In this document: positions 50,034 through 57,595 of the stretch, piece after piece
Layout: each line of letters opens with the position of its first letter
How positions within the stretch are numbered: the stretch's first letter is position 1
The notes under the pieces: model-generated
What the model saw: only the letters and a program-made list of their open reading frames with translations
Told to the model about the DNA's origin: nothing
Databases searched by the model: none
Made by a program: the position numbers and the translations under genes
DNA from: Eubacteriales bacterium
Lineage (GTDB): Bacteria > Bacillota > Clostridia > Oscillospirales > CAG-272
DNA length: 63,718 bases
Reading direction: 5' to 3'
Assembly: GCA_045531485.1 (NCBI GenBank)
Contig: JAZSEC010000061.1
Span: 1-63,718 of the forward strand

Positions 50034-52139
50034 ATGAAAAAATTACTGTCTTTATTATTAATGCTTATCCTTGTGCTGACTCTTGCGGCCTGCGTTAACA
50101 ACAACGGCGATCAGGGTGGCAATAATGACGGCGGCAACAATGACGGTGGTGACGGTGGCGAGCACGTTTGTGACTTCCAGATCACCGAAAGCAAGCCCGC
50201 TACCTGTGAGGCAGACGGCTATGAAAAGCTTGCCTGCTCCTGCGGTGAAACTAAGGAAAATACCCTTACCGCACTTGGTCACGACATTCAGCCTAACGGC
50301 GGCATGGCTGCAAGCTGTACCAGAAAGGGTGTTGAATACAACAAGTGTACCCGTTGCAACAAATCCGAAAATAAGATGATACCCGCACTGGGCCACGAGT
50401 TTGGTCAGCCTACCGAGGCGTCCAGATTCGCTTACTGCAGCAGAGAGGGCTGCACCATGTCCGAGCCCGCGTTCCCCAAGTCGGGACAGCATTCGGAAAG
50501 CCTTAAGTTCGTGTTCGGCGAATCTCATAAGACCGCCCTTTCCGACAAGCACGACGAGGTGGTAGCACTTCTTGAGGCTGCTGACGCATACGATCCCGCC
50601 CTTCACGGCTATGCTGAGAGCGGTGAGCTTTACGATCTCTACTCGGTTGTTGAGGACGCATACGAGGAATACACCGATATGGTTTACTTTGCAATGGACC
50701 AGTATTCCATCGCCATGACACTCTACTACTGTAACTACAACGTTCCCTCTTACGAAACCGCCTACAACGAGATGGCTGACTACTACACCGGCCTGGTTTC
50801 CAAGTACTATTCGCTCTCTCAGCCCTGGTACGACTCCATGTACCGTGAGTTCTTCTTCTACGGTGCTACCGAGGAGGAGATCAACGCCTTCCTCTTTGAC
50901 AGTAACGCACTCGCTAATCCCGAGTACTCGGCTCTTAAGGAGAGAAACACCGCCATCGAGCTTGAGTTCAACAACATTGAGGATCCCATAAACAGCGACC
51001 TCGTTCCCGTGCTTTACGCCGAGATGGTTGAGAATAATAACAGAATGGCAGTTATCCTCGGCTATGACAACTACCTTGAGTACGCTTATGCCGACGTATA
51101 CGACAGAGAATATACCTATGAGGACGTTGCGAAATTCACCGAGTTCGTTAAGGAGTACATAGCTCCCATTTACAGCAGGGTAGCATACGATTACTCTATT
51201 CTTATGTCCAACGGTGGCGACTATACTCAGAAGGATATTGACGGCTTCTACGGTCTTGCTCTCTATTCCTTCTTCACCAACGAGCTTTCCAACGTGGTGT
51301 TCAACGACTTTATCGACGAGATGAACATGGGCTTCACCTCTAATCCCGATAAGCAGTTCTCCTTCTCCGACGTGCTTAACGCACTTTGTGCAGACGGTAA
51401 CCTATTCAGAGGCTCCTACGAGGGTGCATACGTTACATATCTTTATGATAACGAGCTTCCCATCGCATACTTCGGTGGCAACGGTTACGATACTCCTCTT
51501 ACCGTATCTCACGAGTTCGGTCACTACATGAACGAGATCTATAACAGATCCGAGTACGATCAGTCCTACGACCTTCTTGAGTCCCACTCTCAGGGTCACG
51601 AGATGCTCTTCATCCACTTTGCTAAGGGCTACGTAACTCCCATGGCATATAAGCTTGCCGAGACCTACGAGCTTTACTCTATGCTCGGTGCGGTTATCAG
51701 AGGCCTTCGTATCGACTGCTTCGAGCGTGCTATATACCTTAACGAGTACAACGGCACCCGTTCCAACGTGATCATGGCAGACGGCAAGATCTCTCCCGAC
51801 GAGTACGATCTTCTTTACGCTAGTATCGGTGAGGACTTCGGCCTTGTTGACAGTGCCGACGACCTTGAGTACTGGAGATACGGTATGACCATTACCTCTC
51901 CCTGCTACTACGTATCCTACTCCATTTCCGCTATCAACGCACTTCAGATCTATGCTAAGATCGATAACGAGTCCTTTGACGCGGCTAAGGAAAGCTACCT
52001 TAAGCTTATCACCTACACCGACGTAGATCCCGAGATGGGCTTTGAGGACGTTATCCTTTACGCAGGACTTACCTCCTATAACGACGAGCAGACCTATAAG
52101 ACTATCTCCGATTTCTTCAATAGGAGATGGGGAGAATAA
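50034..52139 (+). CDS. Lipoprotein zinc metallopeptidase (HEFGH; M3/oligoendopeptidase-F-like) with two N-terminal Cys modules
   Basis: Lipobox LAAC. HEFGHYMNE (HExxH) with a downstream Glu candidate. 701 aa. Confidence 0.55.
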   Translation: MKKLLSLLLMLILVLTLAACVNNNGDQGGNNDGGNNDGGDGGEHVCDFQITESKPATCEADGYEKLACSCGETKENTLTALGHDIQPNGGMAASCTRKGVEYNKCTRCNKSENKMIPALGHEFGQPTEASRFAYCSREGCTMSEPAFPKSGQHSESLKFVFGESHKTALSDKHDEVVALLEAADAYDPALHGYAESGELYDLYSVVEDAYEEYTDMVYFAMDQYSIAMTLYYCNYNVPSYETAYNEMADYYTGLVSKYYSLSQPWYDSMYREFFFYGATEEEINAFLFDSNALANPEYSALKERNTAIELEFNNIEDPINSDLVPVLYAEMVENNNRMAVILGYDNYLEYAYADVYDREYTYEDVAKFTEFVKEYIAPIYSRVAYDYSILMSNGGDYTQKDIDGFYGLALYSFFTNELSNVVFNDFIDEMNMGFTSNPDKQFSFSDVLNALCADGNLFRGSYEGAYVTYLYDNELPIAYFGGNGYDTPLTVSHEFGHYMNEIYNRSEYDQSYDLLESHSQGHEMLFIHFAKGYVTPMAYKLAETYELYSMLGAVIRGLRIDCFERAIYLNEYNGTRSNVIMADGKISPDEYDLLYASIGEDFGLVDSADDLEYWRYGMTITSPCYYVSYSISAINALQIYAKIDNESFDAAKESYLKLITYTDVDPEMGFEDVILYAGLTSYNDEQTYKTISDFFNRRWGE

Positions 52140-52163
52140 TTGCTCGGTGCAGCTGAATTTCTA

Positions 52164-52194
52164 AGAGTCGGGCAAATTGCCCGACTCTTTTTTC
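52164..52194 (+). terminator. Intrinsic terminator
   Basis: AGAGTCGGGC-AAATT-GCCCGACTCT followed by T6. Confidence 0.85.
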
Positions 52195-52265
52195 TTAAAA
52201 TCACTTGCTAAGGCGGGATTTTTATTATATAATAAATATAATAAATCTCAAAAAGGGAAGAAAAA

Positions 52266-53768
52266 ATGAGGACAAGAGAAATTATTATCATCATAGGACT
52301 TTGTCTGTCGCTTCTTTTGTTCGGAGTGATAGCCGTTCTTGATCAGGCGGTGGATCCTACCGATAATACAAACCCCAATATACGGGAGAATAATATACCC
52401 GCCAAGACGGCTATGATGCATCATCTGATAGAGGGGCTTTCCACCATTGACAAGGAGGGCAGGACATATATCCATCTTGACTCCTATGACGTAAACGAGC
52501 TGCTATACTCCCTCCTTCCGAAGCTGGATTTCGGCTCGGTAAAGGCGAGGAGCATATATATCGAAGAAAGCGAGTCGGGTCACCGACTCTGTATGCCTGT
52601 GCAGATATTCGGCTTTAAGACCATGCTGTCGGGCGAGGTCATAATGTTCACCGAGGGCGATAATATCTGTGCTACGGTAAGCGATCTTCGCGTGGCAAAG
52701 CTCCCCTTGGACGAGGGCTCGCTTTCGGGCGTCAAGGGTATGATAATATCCATGCTTATGGAGCAGGGAATAATCGCCTACTTCGACGGTGTAACGCTGA
52801 ATCTCACAGTGACCAGAGAGGCGATCGGTAATCTTATAGCTCTGAGATATAAGAACGATCCCAACCTTGATCTTATCAACGCTATGTACAGCCTTATTAT
52901 GCTTAAGACCGACTCGGTCAGCATCGACGTGGCAAGTCCCACGGATATAAGGATCCTTGCCGATTTCGGCAGCCTCGGTATGACTGAGGAGGGTAGATTC
53001 TCGGGTCTTAATGCATACGTTACCGATCTTCTTAGCCGTGGTGTAATCGGCAAGGAGCATACCGATCTTATATCAAAATACTACCTGAACGGCTATTCCT
53101 CGCTTACCGAGGAGGAGGGCGACGCGGTAAAGCAGCTTCTCTCTGCCGAGATTGGCGAGGAGGAGATAGCCTCCTATGGCGGCCTTATTGAAAGGGGTAG
53201 TCTGTCGATCACCCAGCTGCTTATCTCTCAGCTCGACGTTGGCAATTCCTTCACCCCCGGCTTTAAGATCTCCGACGGAGATATCAACACACTTATGACC
53301 TCGCTTCCGGTTATCGGCACGGTCTGGACGATGACAAGCTACCGTGACGGCGGCTTTGCCTATATCGCTATCAGCGACGTCCTGTGCGATATCTCGGATG
53401 ACCTTATCAGCATCAGCGTAGGACTTGAGGTAAACGGACGGGTAATTAATATATCTGCGGAATTTGCAACGGGTGAGTCACCGCTGGTTGCCGTAAGAGG
53501 TATGCTGGTCGGTGCTTCGGTGGGTAGCATCCGTCTTGACGAGGGCGAGATGGATCTGATCTTCGGCTTTATGTGCGATCACTTAAACGAGGATTGGATA
53601 TACACCGACAGAGAGGGAAGGACGGTTACCTTAGACTTTACCTTCGCCTTTTCGGACAGCCCACTGCTCAGCTTTCTTCTCAGCAGCAGGCATATAGTTT
53701 CCTCCTGCCATCGACGTCCGACCAATGACGGAGGGTATATAAATATCACCTTCCGATTATTCGGGTAA
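52266..53768 (+). CDS. Hypothetical membrane-anchored protein (N-terminal TM helix, internally duplicated extracytoplasmic domain)
   Basis: One N-terminal TM helix. Two similar segments begin LDSYDVNELLYSLLPKL and ISDGDINTLMTSLPVIG. I recognise no family with confidence. Confidence 0.5.
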   Translation: MRTREIIIIIGLCLSLLLFGVIAVLDQAVDPTDNTNPNIRENNIPAKTAMMHHLIEGLSTIDKEGRTYIHLDSYDVNELLYSLLPKLDFGSVKARSIYIEESESGHRLCMPVQIFGFKTMLSGEVIMFTEGDNICATVSDLRVAKLPLDEGSLSGVKGMIISMLMEQGIIAYFDGVTLNLTVTREAIGNLIALRYKNDPNLDLINAMYSLIMLKTDSVSIDVASPTDIRILADFGSLGMTEEGRFSGLNAYVTDLLSRGVIGKEHTDLISKYYLNGYSSLTEEEGDAVKQLLSAEIGEEEIASYGGLIERGSLSITQLLISQLDVGNSFTPGFKISDGDINTLMTSLPVIGTVWTMTSYRDGGFAYIAISDVLCDISDDLISISVGLEVNGRVINISAEFATGESPLVAVRGMLVGASVGSIRLDEGEMDLIFGFMCDHLNEDWIYTDREGRTVTLDFTFAFSDSPLLSFLLSSRHIVSSCHRRPTNDGGYINITFRLFG

Positions 53769-53787: not shown

Positions 53788-53817
53788 TTGACAAATAAAA
53801 TATCACTGTGATACAAT
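53788..53817 (+). promoter_or_regulatory. Strong promoter of the Cys-repeat peptide cassette
   Basis: TTGACA (53788-53793), 18-nt spacer, TGaTACAAT (-10 at 53812-53817). Confidence 0.7.
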
Positions 53818-53861
53818 AAAAACAACTAAAATAGGCACTCTGCCGAGAAAGGAATAAAACT

Positions 53862-54044
53862 ATGTTCAACTTAACTAACGAAGAAACCACGATGCTTAAC
53901 GAAAAGCTTGCTACCTGCGACGTTACCCCCATCAAGCATGAGAAGGGTGAGCGTGCCAAGAAGGACTGTGGAAGCGACTGCAAGGGTAAGTGCGGTGCTA
54001 CCTGTCAGGCTGTTTGTAAGTCTACCTGCTCGTCTCTCTTCTGA
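53862..54044 (+). CDS. 60-aa (CX3)5C-repeat RiPP precursor candidate
   Basis: MFNLTNEETTMLNEKLATCDVTPIKHEKGERAKKDCGSDCKGKCGATCQAVCKSTCSSLF. AAAGGAA RBS 7 nt upstream. A radical SAM/SPASM gene follows immediately. Confidence 0.8.
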   Translation: MFNLTNEETTMLNEKLATCDVTPIKHEKGERAKKDCGSDCKGKCGATCQAVCKSTCSSLF

Positions 54045-54047
54045 TAA

Positions 54048-55148
54048 ATGGCAGAGGCGAAGCGTAAGATCATAACAATAACCCTTACTCAGTCCTGCAA
54101 TCTTAATTGCACATATTGTTATGAGAAGAATAAATCCGCCAGAGAAATGAATATCGACCAGGTCAAGACCATTCTTGACGAGGCGTTAAACGACGATCGC
54201 TTTGACGAATACGAGATAGATTTCTTTGGCGGAGAGCCCTTCCTACGCTTTGATCTTATAAAGGAGGGCTTTGAATACGCACGTAATACCTATCCCGAGA
54301 AGCCTATGGCGTTTATGGCTACCACCAACGGTACTCTCGTCCACGGCGAGATAAAGGAATGGCTCCGCGAGCATTCCGACGTGTTCTGGTGCGGCCTTAG
54401 CCTTGACGGTACTAAGCGTATGCATGATATGAACCGCTCGGGCAGCTTTGATAGGATAGATATTAAGTTCTTTGCAGACACCTGGCCTAAGCAGGCTATG
54501 AAGATGACCGTATCTGCCGAGAGCCTTCCCTATCTTGCGGAGGGTATTATATTTATGCACGAGAACGGCTACGTTTTCACCTGCAATCTGGCTCACGATA
54601 TTGATTGGTCTAATCCCGATAACAAGGGCATCCTTGAGGGCGAGCTGATGAAGCTTATCGAGTATTATTTTGCTCATCCCGAGGTTAATCCCTGCCAGCT
54701 GCTTAACGTCCCCGTACATATGATAGCCGCCTCCGACCCCTCGGACAGCTTCCGTCAGTGCGGAGCAGGTGAGGAGATGTTCTCCTACGACGTTGACTGC
54801 AAGGCATACCCCTGCCAGTTCTTTATGCCCGTCACTCTCGGTGAGGAGAGGGCAGAGGAGGCACGCAGCCTGGTATTCCGTGAGGAGCTGTACAGAGAGG
54901 ATTTCCCAGAGCCCTGCTCCAGCTGTGTTGCACTGGGCATCTGTCAGAACTGCTACGGTGCTAACTATGAGAACACCGGCGACATTCTGAAGCGTGACGA
55001 GAACTGGTGCGAGCTGCAGAAGATCATATTCCGTGCTACCGCATATTTCAAGTGGAAGCTTTATACCATGGGCAGACTTGACTGTCCTGAGGACGAGATC
55101 GGATATAATCTGAAGGCAATTCAGATGATTATGAACGATCTTCATTAA
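54048..55148 (+). CDS. Radical SAM/SPASM peptide-modifying enzyme (anSME-like layout, no N-terminal RRE)
   Basis: CNLNCTYC at residues 17-24, a GGEP motif and C-terminal Cys clusters CGAG...DCKAYPC, CSSCVALGICQNC and WCE. 366 aa. It starts 3 nt after the peptide stop. Confidence 0.85.
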   Translation: MAEAKRKIITITLTQSCNLNCTYCYEKNKSAREMNIDQVKTILDEALNDDRFDEYEIDFFGGEPFLRFDLIKEGFEYARNTYPEKPMAFMATTNGTLVHGEIKEWLREHSDVFWCGLSLDGTKRMHDMNRSGSFDRIDIKFFADTWPKQAMKMTVSAESLPYLAEGIIFMHENGYVFTCNLAHDIDWSNPDNKGILEGELMKLIEYYFAHPEVNPCQLLNVPVHMIAASDPSDSFRQCGAGEEMFSYDVDCKAYPCQFFMPVTLGEERAEEARSLVFREELYREDFPEPCSSCVALGICQNCYGANYENTGDILKRDENWCELQKIIFRATAYFKWKLYTMGRLDCPEDEIGYNLKAIQMIMNDLH

Positions 55149-55160
55149 AATTTTTAGAAA

Positions 55161-55196
55161 AACATAGGGTTTATGCCCTATGTTTTTCTTTTTTCG
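55161..55196 (+). terminator. Intrinsic terminator closing the peptide-rSAM cassette
   Basis: CATAGGG-TTTATG-CCCTATG followed by TTTTTCTTTTTT. Confidence 0.85.
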
Positions 55197-55197
55197 C

Positions 55198-55227
55198 TTG
55201 AAAAATGCAAATGCTTTGTAGTATAAT
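55198..55227 (+). promoter_or_regulatory. Sigma-A promoter of the phosphofructokinase gene
   Basis: TTGAAA (55198-55203), 18-nt spacer, TATAAT (55222-55227). Confidence 0.6.
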
Positions 55228-55269: not shown

Positions 55270-56499
55270 ATGAAACGCGGAAACGTTATGGTCGGACAGT
55301 CAGGCGGTCCTACCTCTGTTATCAACGCAAGCCTGGTCGGAGTTTTCAAGACTGCAAAGGACGAGGGCTGCGGAACCGTTTACGGTATGCGTAACGGTAT
55401 TGAAGGACTTCTTCAGGAAAGGTATATAGACATCTCCGATTATATCAAAAACGATCTTGACATCGAGCTTCTTAAGCGTACTCCCTCCTCCTTCCTAGGT
55501 ACCTGCCGTTTTAAGCTGCCCCACGCAGACAAGGCACCCGAGCTGTATGAGAAAATTTTTAAGATCCTTGAGGGACTTGACGTTAAGTATTTCTTCTACA
55601 TAGGCGGTAACGACTCTATGGATACCATTATGCAGCTGTCGGGCTATGCTACCAAGATCGGCTCTGACATTCGCTTTATGGGTGTTCCCAAGACCATTGA
55701 CAACGACCTTGCCTGCACCGACCACACTCCCGGCTACGGCTCTGCGGCAAAGTATATAGCCTCCACCATGAAGGAGATAATCCGCGACGCTAAGACCTAT
55801 CCCAACGATTCTGTTACCGTGGTTGAGATAATGGGACGTAACGCAGGCTGGCTTACTGCCGCTGCCGCACTCTCCAGATCCGAGGACTGTGACGGCCCCG
55901 ATCTTATCTATCTTCCCGAGATGGTATTCGATCACGATAAGTTCTTAAGCGAGATCAAGGAGAAGAAAAAGACTAACAAGGCGGTTATCGTAGCCGTTTC
56001 CGAGGGCATCAAGACTGCCGACGGCAAGTACGTCTGCGAGGCTAATAAGAACACCACTCTTGTCGACTCCTTCGGTCATAAGGCACTTGGCGGTACCGCA
56101 CTCTACCTCTCCGACTATCTTACCGACGAGCTTGGCATCAAGTGCCGCGGTATCGTGCTTTCCACCCTTCAGCGTTGTGCATCTCACCTTGTTTCCCGCC
56201 GCGATATTACCGAGGCGTTTATGGCTGGTGCTGATGCAGTTATGGCTGCTCTTCGCGGCGAAACCGGCAAGATGATCATCTTCAAGCGTATCTCCGACAA
56301 CCCCTATTCCATAGTTACCGACATTATGGATATCCGCGAGGTTGCGAACAAGGAAAAGTGCGTTCCTCTTGAGTGGATTACCGAAAACGGCACCTACGTA
56401 TCCGAGGAATTTGACGATTACGCCCGTCCTCTCATCATTGGCGAGCTTTCTCCCTTCATGGTAGACGGACTTCCCAGACATTTGTTTATCGACAAATAA
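55270..56499 (+). CDS. Phosphofructokinase, PPi-dependent-type signature
   Basis: GQSGGPTSVIN. GGNDS has Asp where ATP-PFKs have Gly in GGDG. PKTIDND has Lys where ATP-PFKs have Gly. 409 aa. Confidence 0.8.
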   Translation: MKRGNVMVGQSGGPTSVINASLVGVFKTAKDEGCGTVYGMRNGIEGLLQERYIDISDYIKNDLDIELLKRTPSSFLGTCRFKLPHADKAPELYEKIFKILEGLDVKYFFYIGGNDSMDTIMQLSGYATKIGSDIRFMGVPKTIDNDLACTDHTPGYGSAAKYIASTMKEIIRDAKTYPNDSVTVVEIMGRNAGWLTAAAALSRSEDCDGPDLIYLPEMVFDHDKFLSEIKEKKKTNKAVIVAVSEGIKTADGKYVCEANKNTTLVDSFGHKALGGTALYLSDYLTDELGIKCRGIVLSTLQRCASHLVSRRDITEAFMAGADAVMAALRGETGKMIIFKRISDNPYSIVTDIMDIREVANKEKCVPLEWITENGTYVSEEFDDYARPLIIGELSPFMVDGLPRHLFIDK

Positions 56500-56516
56500 A
56501 AATTAATATTCAATTA

Positions 56517-56540
56517 AGAGCCATCCTTCGGGGTGGCTCT
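56517..56540 (+). terminator. Hairpin terminator (weak U-tract) overlapping the next -35
   Basis: AGAGCCATCC-TTCG-GGGTGGCTCT. Confidence 0.55.
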
Positions 56541-56568
56541 TGACTTATCTCTTATTATATGATATAAT
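56540..56568 (+). promoter_or_regulatory. Consensus sigma-A promoter of the membrane LuxR regulator
   Basis: TTGACT (56540-56545), 17-nt spacer, TATAAT (56563-56568). Confidence 0.65.
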
Positions 56569-56626
56569 ATTTTTGATTTTAAAGAATAACTACCGTCACT
56601 TTTGACTGATGATGGCGGGGAGGTGA

Positions 56627-57595
56627 ATGGATTTGACAGCGGTGTATAGCATTCTTTTTGTTATTTCACTCATTATACCCATCGTGTATTTTATGATAAG
56701 CAAAAATAAGAGGGACCCTTGGATATTCCTTCTTCATATATCCATCTGTATAGTTAATCTCGGATACCTTATCCTTTCTGCATCCCGTAGCCTTGAGCTT
56801 GCTCTGTTTGCAAACAAGCTTGCCTATTTTGGTCAGATCTTCGTGATAATGTCTATGCTGCTGATAATCACCAGGCTCTGCGGATTTAAATTCGGCAAGG
56901 CTCTGCCCATCTCTCTGGTCGCGATCGGCTGTATTATGTTCGCACTGATCCTCACCACCGGACATCTTGACTGGTATTATAAGAGCGTAAGCCTTGAGTT
57001 CGTCGACGGTGCGGCAAAGCTGGTGAAGGAATACGGCCCCCTTCATCCCACCTATCTTATCTACGTCCTCGCTTATTTCGTAGCAATGCTGACGGTTATC
57101 TTCTATTCTGTAAATAAGAAGCGTGTCGGCTCTCAGAAGCTGGCGGGTCTTATGCTTGCGGTGGTTTTCTCTAACATCGGTATGTGGCTGGTGGAGAAGA
57201 TCGTTCCGCTTAATTTCGAGTTTCTCTCTGTATCCTATCTGATGAGCGAGATTATTCTGCTGATCACTAACTGGATGCTCAGCGATTACGTTCACGTAAG
57301 CGACGTTTCCACTCCCACAGAGGAAAGGCAGAGGGTCATTCTCGTCGGCTCGGGTGAAAGGCAGAAAAGGGTAGAGGAGATCATATCTCACCTTCCCGAG
57401 GGCACCTCGCTTTCACCAAGGCAGCTTGATATCCTTGAGGGCATTCTTGACGGCAGGACCAGGAAGGAGATCGCAGCAGATCTTCACCTCTCCGAGAATA
57501 CTGTAAAGATGCATACCTCCTCTCTGTATAAAGCCCTCGGCGTCTGTAGCCGAGATGAGATCTATGCAATGCTTGGCAGTGATAAAAATGATTAA
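56627..57595 (+). CDS. Membrane-embedded LuxR/FixJ-type HTH regulator (6-7 TM N-terminal domain plus C-terminal GerE HTH)
   Basis: C-terminal LSPRQLDILEGILDGRTRKEIAADLHLSENTVKMHTSSLYKALG. The N-terminal 220 aa are hydrophobic. The in-frame TTG at 56633 may be the true start, because it has better spacing from GGGGAGG. Confidence 0.8.
   Translation: MDLTAVYSILFVISLIIPIVYFMISKNKRDPWIFLLHISICIVNLGYLILSASRSLELALFANKLAYFGQIFVIMSMLLIITRLCGFKFGKALPISLVAIGCIMFALILTTGHLDWYYKSVSLEFVDGAAKLVKEYGPLHPTYLIYVLAYFVAMLTVIFYSVNKKRVGSQKLAGLMLAVVFSNIGMWLVEKIVPLNFEFLSVSYLMSEIILLITNWMLSDYVHVSDVSTPTEERQRVILVGSGERQKRVEEIISHLPEGTSLSPRQLDILEGILDGRTRKEIAADLHLSENTVKMHTSSLYKALGVCSRDEIYAMLGSDKND

Follow-up and report, generated by a model that had tools for sequence, protein, structure and literature searches.

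A Cys-ladder peptide and a short radical SAM/SPASM enzyme form a putative minimal RiPP cassette in an Eubacteriales bacterium

The two-gene cassette reported here lies in a 63,718-nt stretch of DNA from an Eubacteriales bacterium (contig JAZSEC010000061.1), called the window throughout, and the described systems closest to it are built around a radical S-adenosylmethionine (SAM) enzyme with a SPASM region. In the CXXX-repeat system, which is known in silico only, a TIGR04115 enzyme is found with a TIGR04117 target peptide containing Cys-Xaa3 repeats and with TIGR04116 and TIGR04119 companions. The SCIFF/ScfB systems (CteA–CteB and Tte1186a–Tte1186; TIGR03973 and TIGR03974) have a bare two-gene layout with no protease or exporter. 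Their precursor of about 50–60 aa carries a C-terminal Cys-rich core with CX3C units, and the N-terminus of their enzyme is a PqqD-like recognition element (RRE) of ~100 aa for the precursor of a peptide that is made on the ribosome and modified after translation (RiPP). In the ranthipeptide system of freyrasin, one PapB makes several links in PapA, a substrate with tandem repeats of four-residue period led by Cys, and the RRE of PapB comprises residues 1–86 (PMC12715619). Other enzymes of this kind have no RRE. The anSME enzymes (4k36–4k39) are ~370 aa long, with a SPASM region whose two auxiliary clusters are fully ligated by eight Cys, and the cyclophane synthases ChlB (375 aa; 9gm3/9gmc) and YhhB share this compact layout.

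The cassette lies on the + strand and comprises a 60-aa open reading frame (ORF) at 53862–54044, whose product is MFNLTNEETTMLNEKLATCDVTPIKHEKGERAKKDCGSDCKGKCGATCQAVCKSTCSSLF, followed by a 366-aa enzyme ORF at 54048–55148. Between them the peptide stop TGA is followed by TAA and then by the enzyme ATG, which places the enzyme start 3 nt past the stop. The best reading of this arrangement is a minimal RiPP cassette that is a sister to the SCIFF, PapB and CXXX-repeat systems. Its elements are as follows.

53788–53817, + strand: predicted sigma-70-type promoter (TTGACA, 18-nt spacer, TG-extended TACAAT), 11/12 consensus positions
53848–53854, + strand: ribosome-binding site AAAGGAA, 7 nt ahead of the ATG, read directly in the sequence
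53862–53966, + strand: precursor leader, residues 1–35, with an N-terminal M-F-N-L that is conserved across the family
53967–54044, + strand: precursor core, residues 36–60 (CGSDCKGKCGATCQAVCKSTCSSLF), and stop codon; six Cys in CX3 register
54048–55148, + strand: predicted 366-aa radical SAM/SPASM peptide maturase without an RRE, from the PF04055 match, the likeness to CteB, the AlphaFold2 model and Foldseek
54096–54119, + strand: codons of C17-x3-C21-x2-C24, the [4Fe-4S] motif of radical SAM enzymes, unchanged in the 45 family members compared
54759–55010, + strand: SPASM region, residues 238–321 (C238, C256, C290-x2-C293-x5-C299-x2-C302, C321), from the TIGR04085 match and the CteB alignment
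54999–55139, + strand: two long C-terminal helices (residues 318–340 and 348–364) in the secondary structure of the AlphaFold2 model, the second lying past the end of the CteB alignment
55156–55199, + strand: predicted intrinsic terminator with a 15-bp stem (55156–55189), a 4-nt loop and a T-run

Purifying selection acts on the small ORF, which is a protein-coding gene. Its core carries six Cys with a strict four-residue period from C36 to C56, followed by SSLF; an earlier note on this DNA, made from the sequence, had counted five residues past the last Cys, and the actual count is four. Stop-free segments with at least four Cys in CX3 register occur only twice in the six frames of the 63.7-kb window, as the SCIFF gene at 1–147 and as the ORF at 53862–54044, and the Cys ladder of the latter is not a product of chance. 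We compared the window peptide with the equal-length orthologues of three loci whose enzymes share 95% (L001), 84% (L005) and 69% (L003) identity with that of the window. The ratio of nonsynonymous to synonymous substitution rates (dN/dS) of the core is 0.01–0.08 in the pairs with unsaturated dS (window pairs, or L001 against L005) and 0.155 for L001 against L003, and that of the leader is 0.16–0.18. The low dN/dS of the core marks the small ORF as a real gene. Members of the clade of the window share the block C-Q-A-x-C-K-S-[ST]-C-[ST]-x-L-F, and the exact 60-aa sequence is not on record in public assemblies.

The peptide also travels with the enzyme. A first genome scan with the enzyme protein returned eight loci (95–43% identity), with a precursor directly upstream in 8/8. 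A profile-based scan gave 79 distinct homologous loci with enzymes of 35–95% identity, spanning Clostridia, Bacilli, Erysipelotrichaceae, Coriobacteriia, spirochaetes, Bacteroidales, Anaerolineae, Cloacimonadota and others. A same-strand small ORF with at least three Cys in CX3 register stands beside the enzyme in 69 of these 79 loci, and 59 still qualify when at least four Cys are required; among the 74 precursor candidates flagged, 58 lie upstream of the enzyme and 16 just downstream. Across the 79 loci, Cys-ladder segments are ~26-fold denser per bp by the enzyme (62 in 124.5 kb) than elsewhere (4 in 208 kb). The earlier note had named homologues flanking something other than Cys-repeat ORFs as the finding that would speak against a cassette, and the outcome of this check, 69/79, favors the cassette. 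Co-inheritance of the Cys-repeat peptide with the enzyme extends across phyla.

Within these precursors, the leader and the core behave differently. The leader starts with M-F-x-[LIV] in 42 of the 47 cleanly delimited precursors, continues as an amphipathic stretch and has a median length of 36 residues. The core contains from 3 to 17 Cys, and its character varies by clade: spirochaete cores are basic, those of Bacteroidales are acidic, and those of the window's clade are SCIFF-like. Within the CX3C units, Gly occupies X2 in 48% and Thr or Ser occupies X3 in 48%. Cys is the one core feature that is invariant across the family, and no recurrent aromatic residues are found in the family cores. 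Several precursor copies are present at some loci. A conserved leader joined to a variable core and encoded beside the enzyme is the classical RiPP signature.

The longest ladder observed belongs to 112-aa precursors at two loci of spirochaete metagenome-assembled genomes (L019, ~1260–1596, and L020, ~2158–2494), which have 17 Cys in unbroken CX3 register and a Lys/Thr-rich spacer (CKTTCKGGCHATCKTTC...). The precursors of L036, L039 and L079 keep the M-F-x-L leader with an irregular core, CSCKGxCGTYxPxCSCCAY[ND]; since these cores differ under the same leader, one leader type serves more than one core type.

The small protein might instead be a Cys-rich accessory, such as a metal or Fe–S binder or a redox partner, with the true substrate of the enzyme encoded elsewhere. 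Its Gly/Ser/Lys-rich CX3C ladder resembles metal-binding peptides, no protease, exporter or immunity gene is conserved with it, and its surroundings are of a housekeeping kind (a pyrophosphate-dependent phosphofructokinase lies downstream) with unremarkable base composition. The RiPP signature is at odds with an accessory role, as are the hypervariable core of 3–17 Cys and the multiple precursor copies at some loci; SCIFF, which has the same bare layout, is a proven enzyme substrate (CteA/CteB complex, 5wgg/5why), and no alternative substrate gene is conserved nearby. We regard the accessory role as improbable, and the two genes very probably form a true precursor–maturase pair.

The enzyme of this pair belongs to the radical SAM superfamily, with the CX3CX2C motif and a PF04055 score of 49.8 bits against a cut-off of 29.5. 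In Pfam the enzyme matches Radical_SAM and Fer4_12 and neither PqqD nor SPASM; PF13186 (SPASM) has no match even at E 10. The SPASM model TIGR04085 is matched over its full profile (positions 1–93) with a marginal score of 28.5 bits against a cut-off of 27, and this match, together with seven invariant Cys and full-length fold matches to CteB and anSME, places the enzyme in the SPASM subfamily. In the 45 members compared the invariant Cys are C17, C21, C24, C216, C238, C256, C290, C293, C299, C302 and C321. Eight of them lie outside the radical SAM motif: seven are SPASM Cys that align to those of CteB, and the eighth is the upstream C216. The SPASM block reads CX2CX5CX2C, compared with the canonical CX2CX5CX3C. 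A complete SPASM set of Cys had been read from the sequence before. Its seven SPASM Cys are indeed invariant and are joined by C216, but the extra C251 of 'DCKAYPC' stands outside the conserved set because most relatives have Gly there.

CteB is the best solved relative by sequence (E 4e-15). Residues 7–326 of the enzyme align to residues 97–440 of CteB, so the RRE is missing; the N-terminus extends only 16 residues ahead of the radical SAM motif, and no PqqD/RRE match is found on the enzyme, while the window's own ScfB has one. The AlphaFold2 model (pLDDT 94.6, pTM 0.90) shows a partial barrel, the SPASM region and the two long C-terminal helices, with no winged-helix domain. Foldseek places CteB first (E 1e-17, TM 0.66), followed by anSME (TM 0.68) and ChlB (TM 0.67). 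The absence of an N-terminal RRE, a point of the first reading of the sequence, is borne out by the alignment, the profile search and the model, and the enzyme also has the anSME-type layout named in that reading.

This layout is also what favors a housekeeping role, in which a chance frame, the small ORF, would stand beside an anSME or a SPASM enzyme of some other housekeeping kind: its length of ~370 aa, the lack of an RRE, the eight non-motif Cys and the TM of 0.68 are all anSME-like. The score for anSME (TIGR03942) is nevertheless 62 bits against a cut-off of 349, no sulfatase is encoded among the four flanking ORFs checked (50034–53768 and 55270–57595), and the small ORF, on which purifying selection is strong, is syntenic in 69/79 loci and is one of only two such Cys ladders in the six frames of the window. 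A housekeeping enzyme beside a chance ORF is very improbable, and the anSME score, dN/dS and synteny refute it for practical purposes. Sequence similarity to anSME is confined to residues 14–132, and in place of a sulfatase partner or motif the enzyme has a conserved partner peptide.

To place the enzyme among peptide maturases, we scored it against the NCBIfam radical SAM families, the search that the earlier note had proposed, and no curated family was reached. The best-scoring model is PapB (NF047865), with 138 bits against a cut-off of 340 over profile positions 4–327 of 330, and lower scores are given by the CXXX-repeat maturase TIGR04115 (111 against 350), CcpM (105 against 500), ScfB TIGR03974 (83.9 against 425), anSME and YhhB NF041707 (47 against 445). 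Membership of TIGR04115, PapB, ScfB, anSME, CcpM and CefB is rejected, as all scores fall far below the NCBIfam cut-offs. The top-scoring families are all peptide maturases, and the named families within the first eight (PapB, ScfB, RumMC and QhpD) form thioethers. The window's own ScfB serves as a calibration: it scores 750 with TIGR03974, 278 with the PapB model and 123 with TIGR04115. Since it reaches 278 and 123, the 138 and 111 bits of the cassette enzyme reflect general SPASM maturase similarity and no specific kinship.

The same holds across the family. An exhaustive search (E up to 1e-30) gave 323 clusters at 50% identity, nearly all of 355–395 aa and with a match that begins within about the first 15–25 residues. 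Among 65 diverse representatives, not one reaches an NCBIfam equivalog cut-off, and their best E-values are 3.4e-51 for TIGR04115 and 4.7e-55 for PapB; the TIGR04115 scores of relatives range from 102 to 162 bits, with L007 at 162. By its profile scores the family appears to be a separate branch with no NCBIfam equivalog model.

The CXXX-repeat family had been suggested as the possible home of this enzyme, and the two systems do resemble each other. The TIGR04115 profile is short (359 positions), starts at the radical SAM motif and is also RRE-less, and an adjacent Cys-Xaa3 peptide, here with six Cys in register, is present in both. The sole NCBIfam match of the cassette peptide is TIGR04117, at 15.3 bits against 50 (E 0.016), and it covers the Cys repeat only and not the leader; neither of the companion genes TIGR04116 and TIGR04119 is found at the cassette. 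With the enzyme at 111 bits against 350 as well, the suggested TIGRFAM names a neighboring family, not that of the window.

The likeness to SCIFF lies in the bare two-gene layout, the precursor size, the CX3C core (CQSACKTSC in SCIFF and CQAVCKSTC in the cassette) and the radical SAM/SPASM enzyme, for which CteB is the nearest solved match in both sequence and fold. There are also differences. The cassette enzyme lacks the ~100-aa N-terminal PqqD-like RRE of ScfB (366 compared with 466 aa) and has an altered SPASM block with an eighth invariant Cys. In its family the Cys register is strict and the Cys number variable, the M-F-x-L leader is unrelated, and the peptide ends in LF with no SCIFF tail. 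The SCIFF model TIGR03973, a hidden Markov model (HMM) for six Cys in 45 residues, does not match the cassette peptide at E up to 1. The description of the cassette as SCIFF-like therefore stands for the core resemblance and the two-gene layout and fails for kinship, given the missing SCIFF HMM match and the enzyme score of 84 against 425. The window also encodes a canonical SCIFF precursor (1–147; TIGR03973, 80.8 bits against 50) and its ScfB (237–1637; PqqD and SPASM in Pfam), so that one genome carries both the classical SCIFF system and the RRE-less one.

With PapA/PapB the cassette shares a tandem substrate repeat with a four-residue period led by Cys. The repeats of PapA are CX3D with Asp or Glu as acceptors, whereas CX3(D/E) repeats do not occur in CGSDCKGKCGATCQAVCKSTCSSLF, in which the single Asp is at i+3 and Cys is at i+4. 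The cyclophane synthases share the RRE-less compact layout and have marginal sequence similarity to the cassette enzyme (E 1e-4); they act on aromatic-X-polar motifs and form C–C bonds, and the cassette cores have no recurrent aromatics.

How a leader is read without an RRE had been posed as an open question, which overstates the case, as there are precedents. ChlB has been crystallized in complex with a precursor leader (PDB 9gm3), and PapB without its RRE still forms cross-links, with leader-independent PapB activity as a further precedent (PMC12715619).

Taking these comparisons together, we propose the following mechanism. A single transcript running from the promoter at 53788–53817 to the terminator at 55156–55199 would encode both the precursor and the maturase, a three-cluster radical SAM/SPASM enzyme. 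The precursor would dock through the conserved N-terminal M-F-x-L amphipathic segment of its leader, and the docking surface would be the catalytic body or the C-terminal helices instead of an RRE; a leader-binding role of the helices is speculation. SAM cleavage would be followed by abstraction of a hydrogen atom from a core residue, and the resulting carbon would be joined to the sulfur of a nearby Cys, each event forming one link (-2 Da) and being repeated along the CX3 ladder, with link chemistry as in CteB, PapB and QhpD. Candidate acceptors are the Ser/Thr residues that prevail directly ahead of the next Cys. In the clade of the window, Ser/Thr57, which is conserved and follows C56, is another candidate; a link from C52 to Ser/Thr57 would be analogous to the one in CteA, which joins Cys32 to Thr37. 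The analogy is a weak one, since Gly stands at the corresponding place in the window's own SCIFF. The product is probably intracellular or processed by housekeeping functions, as is thought for SCIFF, because no protease or exporter is conserved.

The thioether step is suggested by several observations. In the core only Cys is invariant, and the named families with the best scores form thioethers. CteB is the nearest solved enzyme, and four of its six catalytic-site proximity positions (PMC10288494) are kept: in the alignment Y25, F60, T93 and S118 are identical or similar to F112, F152, T186 and S210 of CteB.

Several observations weigh against this chemistry. Thioether formation is inferred from distant homology; the HMM scores are generic and point to no known thioether family as specifically close. 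In structure the enzyme is as similar to anSME (TM 0.68), which is not a cross-linker, as to CteB, and the cyclophane synthases are equally close. Typical acceptors are scarce, since the core has one Asp and CX3D is replaced by CX3C, and i+4, the acceptor position of PapB, is itself Cys. The fifth and sixth of the CteB active-site positions differ (Q257/F258 compared with H363/Q364), and the invariant C216 may fill the open Aux I site where CteB binds a substrate Cys. Judged from homology and analogy, thioether formation has roughly even odds. For the whole statement, namely a RiPP pair with thioether chemistry and leader recognition without an RRE, we estimate a probability of about 0.55.

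The same observations leave some room for a non-thioether reaction of the same pair on the Cys ladder, for which the options are C–C or C–O cross-links, epimerization, conversion of Cys to formylglycine, another removal or rearrangement of sulfur, and a Cys-to-Cys link from i to i+4. Function is not transferable from a known family because no curated equivalog cut-off is passed. Short RRE-less SPASM enzymes whose folds are as close as that of CteB do other chemistry, with formylglycine formed by anSME and cyclophanes by ChlB and YhhB; the acceptor Asp of PapB at i+4 coincides with the next Cys in this family, and the altered block CX2CX5CX2C and the eighth invariant Cys fit an altered reaction as well. 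Among these options, the lack of recurrent core aromatics argues against cyclophanes, and formylglycine is disfavored by the anSME score and by the absence of a CxPxR/CxAxR sulfatase-type motif. Moreover, Cys alone is invariant in the core, and the best-scoring named families are mostly thioether formers. On balance a non-thioether reaction is unlikely, though it deserves serious consideration.

A combined form of these ideas joins an undescribed SPASM modification on a helical Cys ladder with a leader read by a new RRE-independent surface, the conserved C-terminal helix pair. The modification could consist of consecutive short-range links, including Cys-to-Cys links from i to i+4, giving a rigid stapled rod or a metal-binding, cofactor-like intracellular peptide. 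We regard this as a doubtful possibility. The RiPP pair with thioether chemistry remains the reading that we prefer.

The signals around the two genes agree with a single unit. Both ORFs, the near-consensus promoter, the ribosome-binding site and the strong terminator had been claimed before, and sequence, promoter and hairpin scans locate all of them in the same places. The terminator folds with a free energy of -21.3 kcal/mol (z = -8.0), and 0/200 shuffles fold as well. The region has 4 promoter-like sites where shuffles lead one to expect 4.0, and without enrichment only the quality and placement of the site at 53788–53817 count; this predicted promoter is plausible but unproven. Searches for RNA elements in and around the cassette gave only sub-threshold chance matches, and the base composition of the cassette is unremarkable, with no sign of recent horizontal transfer.

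A third gene was sought by an all-against-all BLAST of the flanking ORFs of the 79 loci. No protease, exporter, discrete RRE, TIGR04116 or other gene is a family-wide partner in them, in agreement with the view, first taken from the window itself, that no protease, exporter or immunity gene is attached. Local associations do occur. In 15 Bacteroidales loci (within L057–L077, and L085) a common ORF lies just downstream of the enzyme; it has no Pfam match, its representative stop-free segment in L068 (3743–4642) is 300 aa long, and the ORF may encode a third component specific to this clade. In six loci (L032, L045, L047, L059, L061 and L064) the cassette has a longer, second radical SAM gene as a neighbor; an example is L045 3945–5351 (Radical_SAM and Fer4_12). 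A resolvase-like neighbor is present at L042. Finally, a 599-aa database protein, P0039, joins the enzyme family to TraG/type IV coupling-protein domains (PF10412, PF02534 and PF12696), and this fusion could be a gene-calling artefact or a hint of carriage on conjugative elements.

In the window the neighbors are a 701-aa lipoprotein-like protein, a 500-aa protein, the downstream phosphofructokinase and a 7TM–LuxR fusion. The 701-aa protein (50034–52139) has Cys-rich N-terminal repeats, an HEFGH motif and a weak match to M3 oligoendopeptidase (68 bits against 442), and the 500-aa protein (52266–53768) has no Pfam or NCBIfam match. In L001, which is 95% identical, the peptidase gene abuts the cassette and the gene for the 500-aa protein is absent. 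The M3-like peptidase was considered as a leader protease and rejected, as it adjoins the cassette only in the window and L001. The fusion protein (56627–57595, 322 aa) joins an N-terminal seven-transmembrane (7TM) sensor region (PF16927, HisKA_7TM) to a LuxR/GerE helix-turn-helix, and no kinase or receiver domain was detected in it.

In a literature search on Cys-rich radical SAM RiPPs we found no characterization of this family, and no solved product chemistry for such a peptide, as the earlier note had supposed. No paper combining 'CXXX repeat' with radical SAM was found, and TIGR04115 turns up once, incidentally. 'Cluster 59' of a 2022 mapping paper comprises a radical SAM enzyme, an Asp–Cys repeat peptide and a recombinase, is uncharacterized in that paper, and may overlap with acidic members of the present family.

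The cassette introduces no new principle, since a radical SAM/SPASM enzyme with a Cys-rich peptide is a well-known kind of system and many such families are uncharacterized, and it will not surprise a RiPP specialist. It is widespread, minimal and easily testable, and it is a good experimental lead. The family is large and without a curated model, and it extends over gut and rumen Clostridia, Bacilli, Bacteroidales, Coriobacteriia and spirochaetes. It consists of a single peptide and a single RRE-less enzyme, close to the minimum for a RiPP system, and should therefore be easy to reconstitute. Solving its chemistry would show what becomes of a peptide in which each fourth residue is Cys, and the cyclophane synthases would be joined by a second case of a bare radical SAM/SPASM body that recognizes a leader. 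It would also allow the cassette to be compared with SCIFF, a system of still unclear biological role, within one genome that has both.

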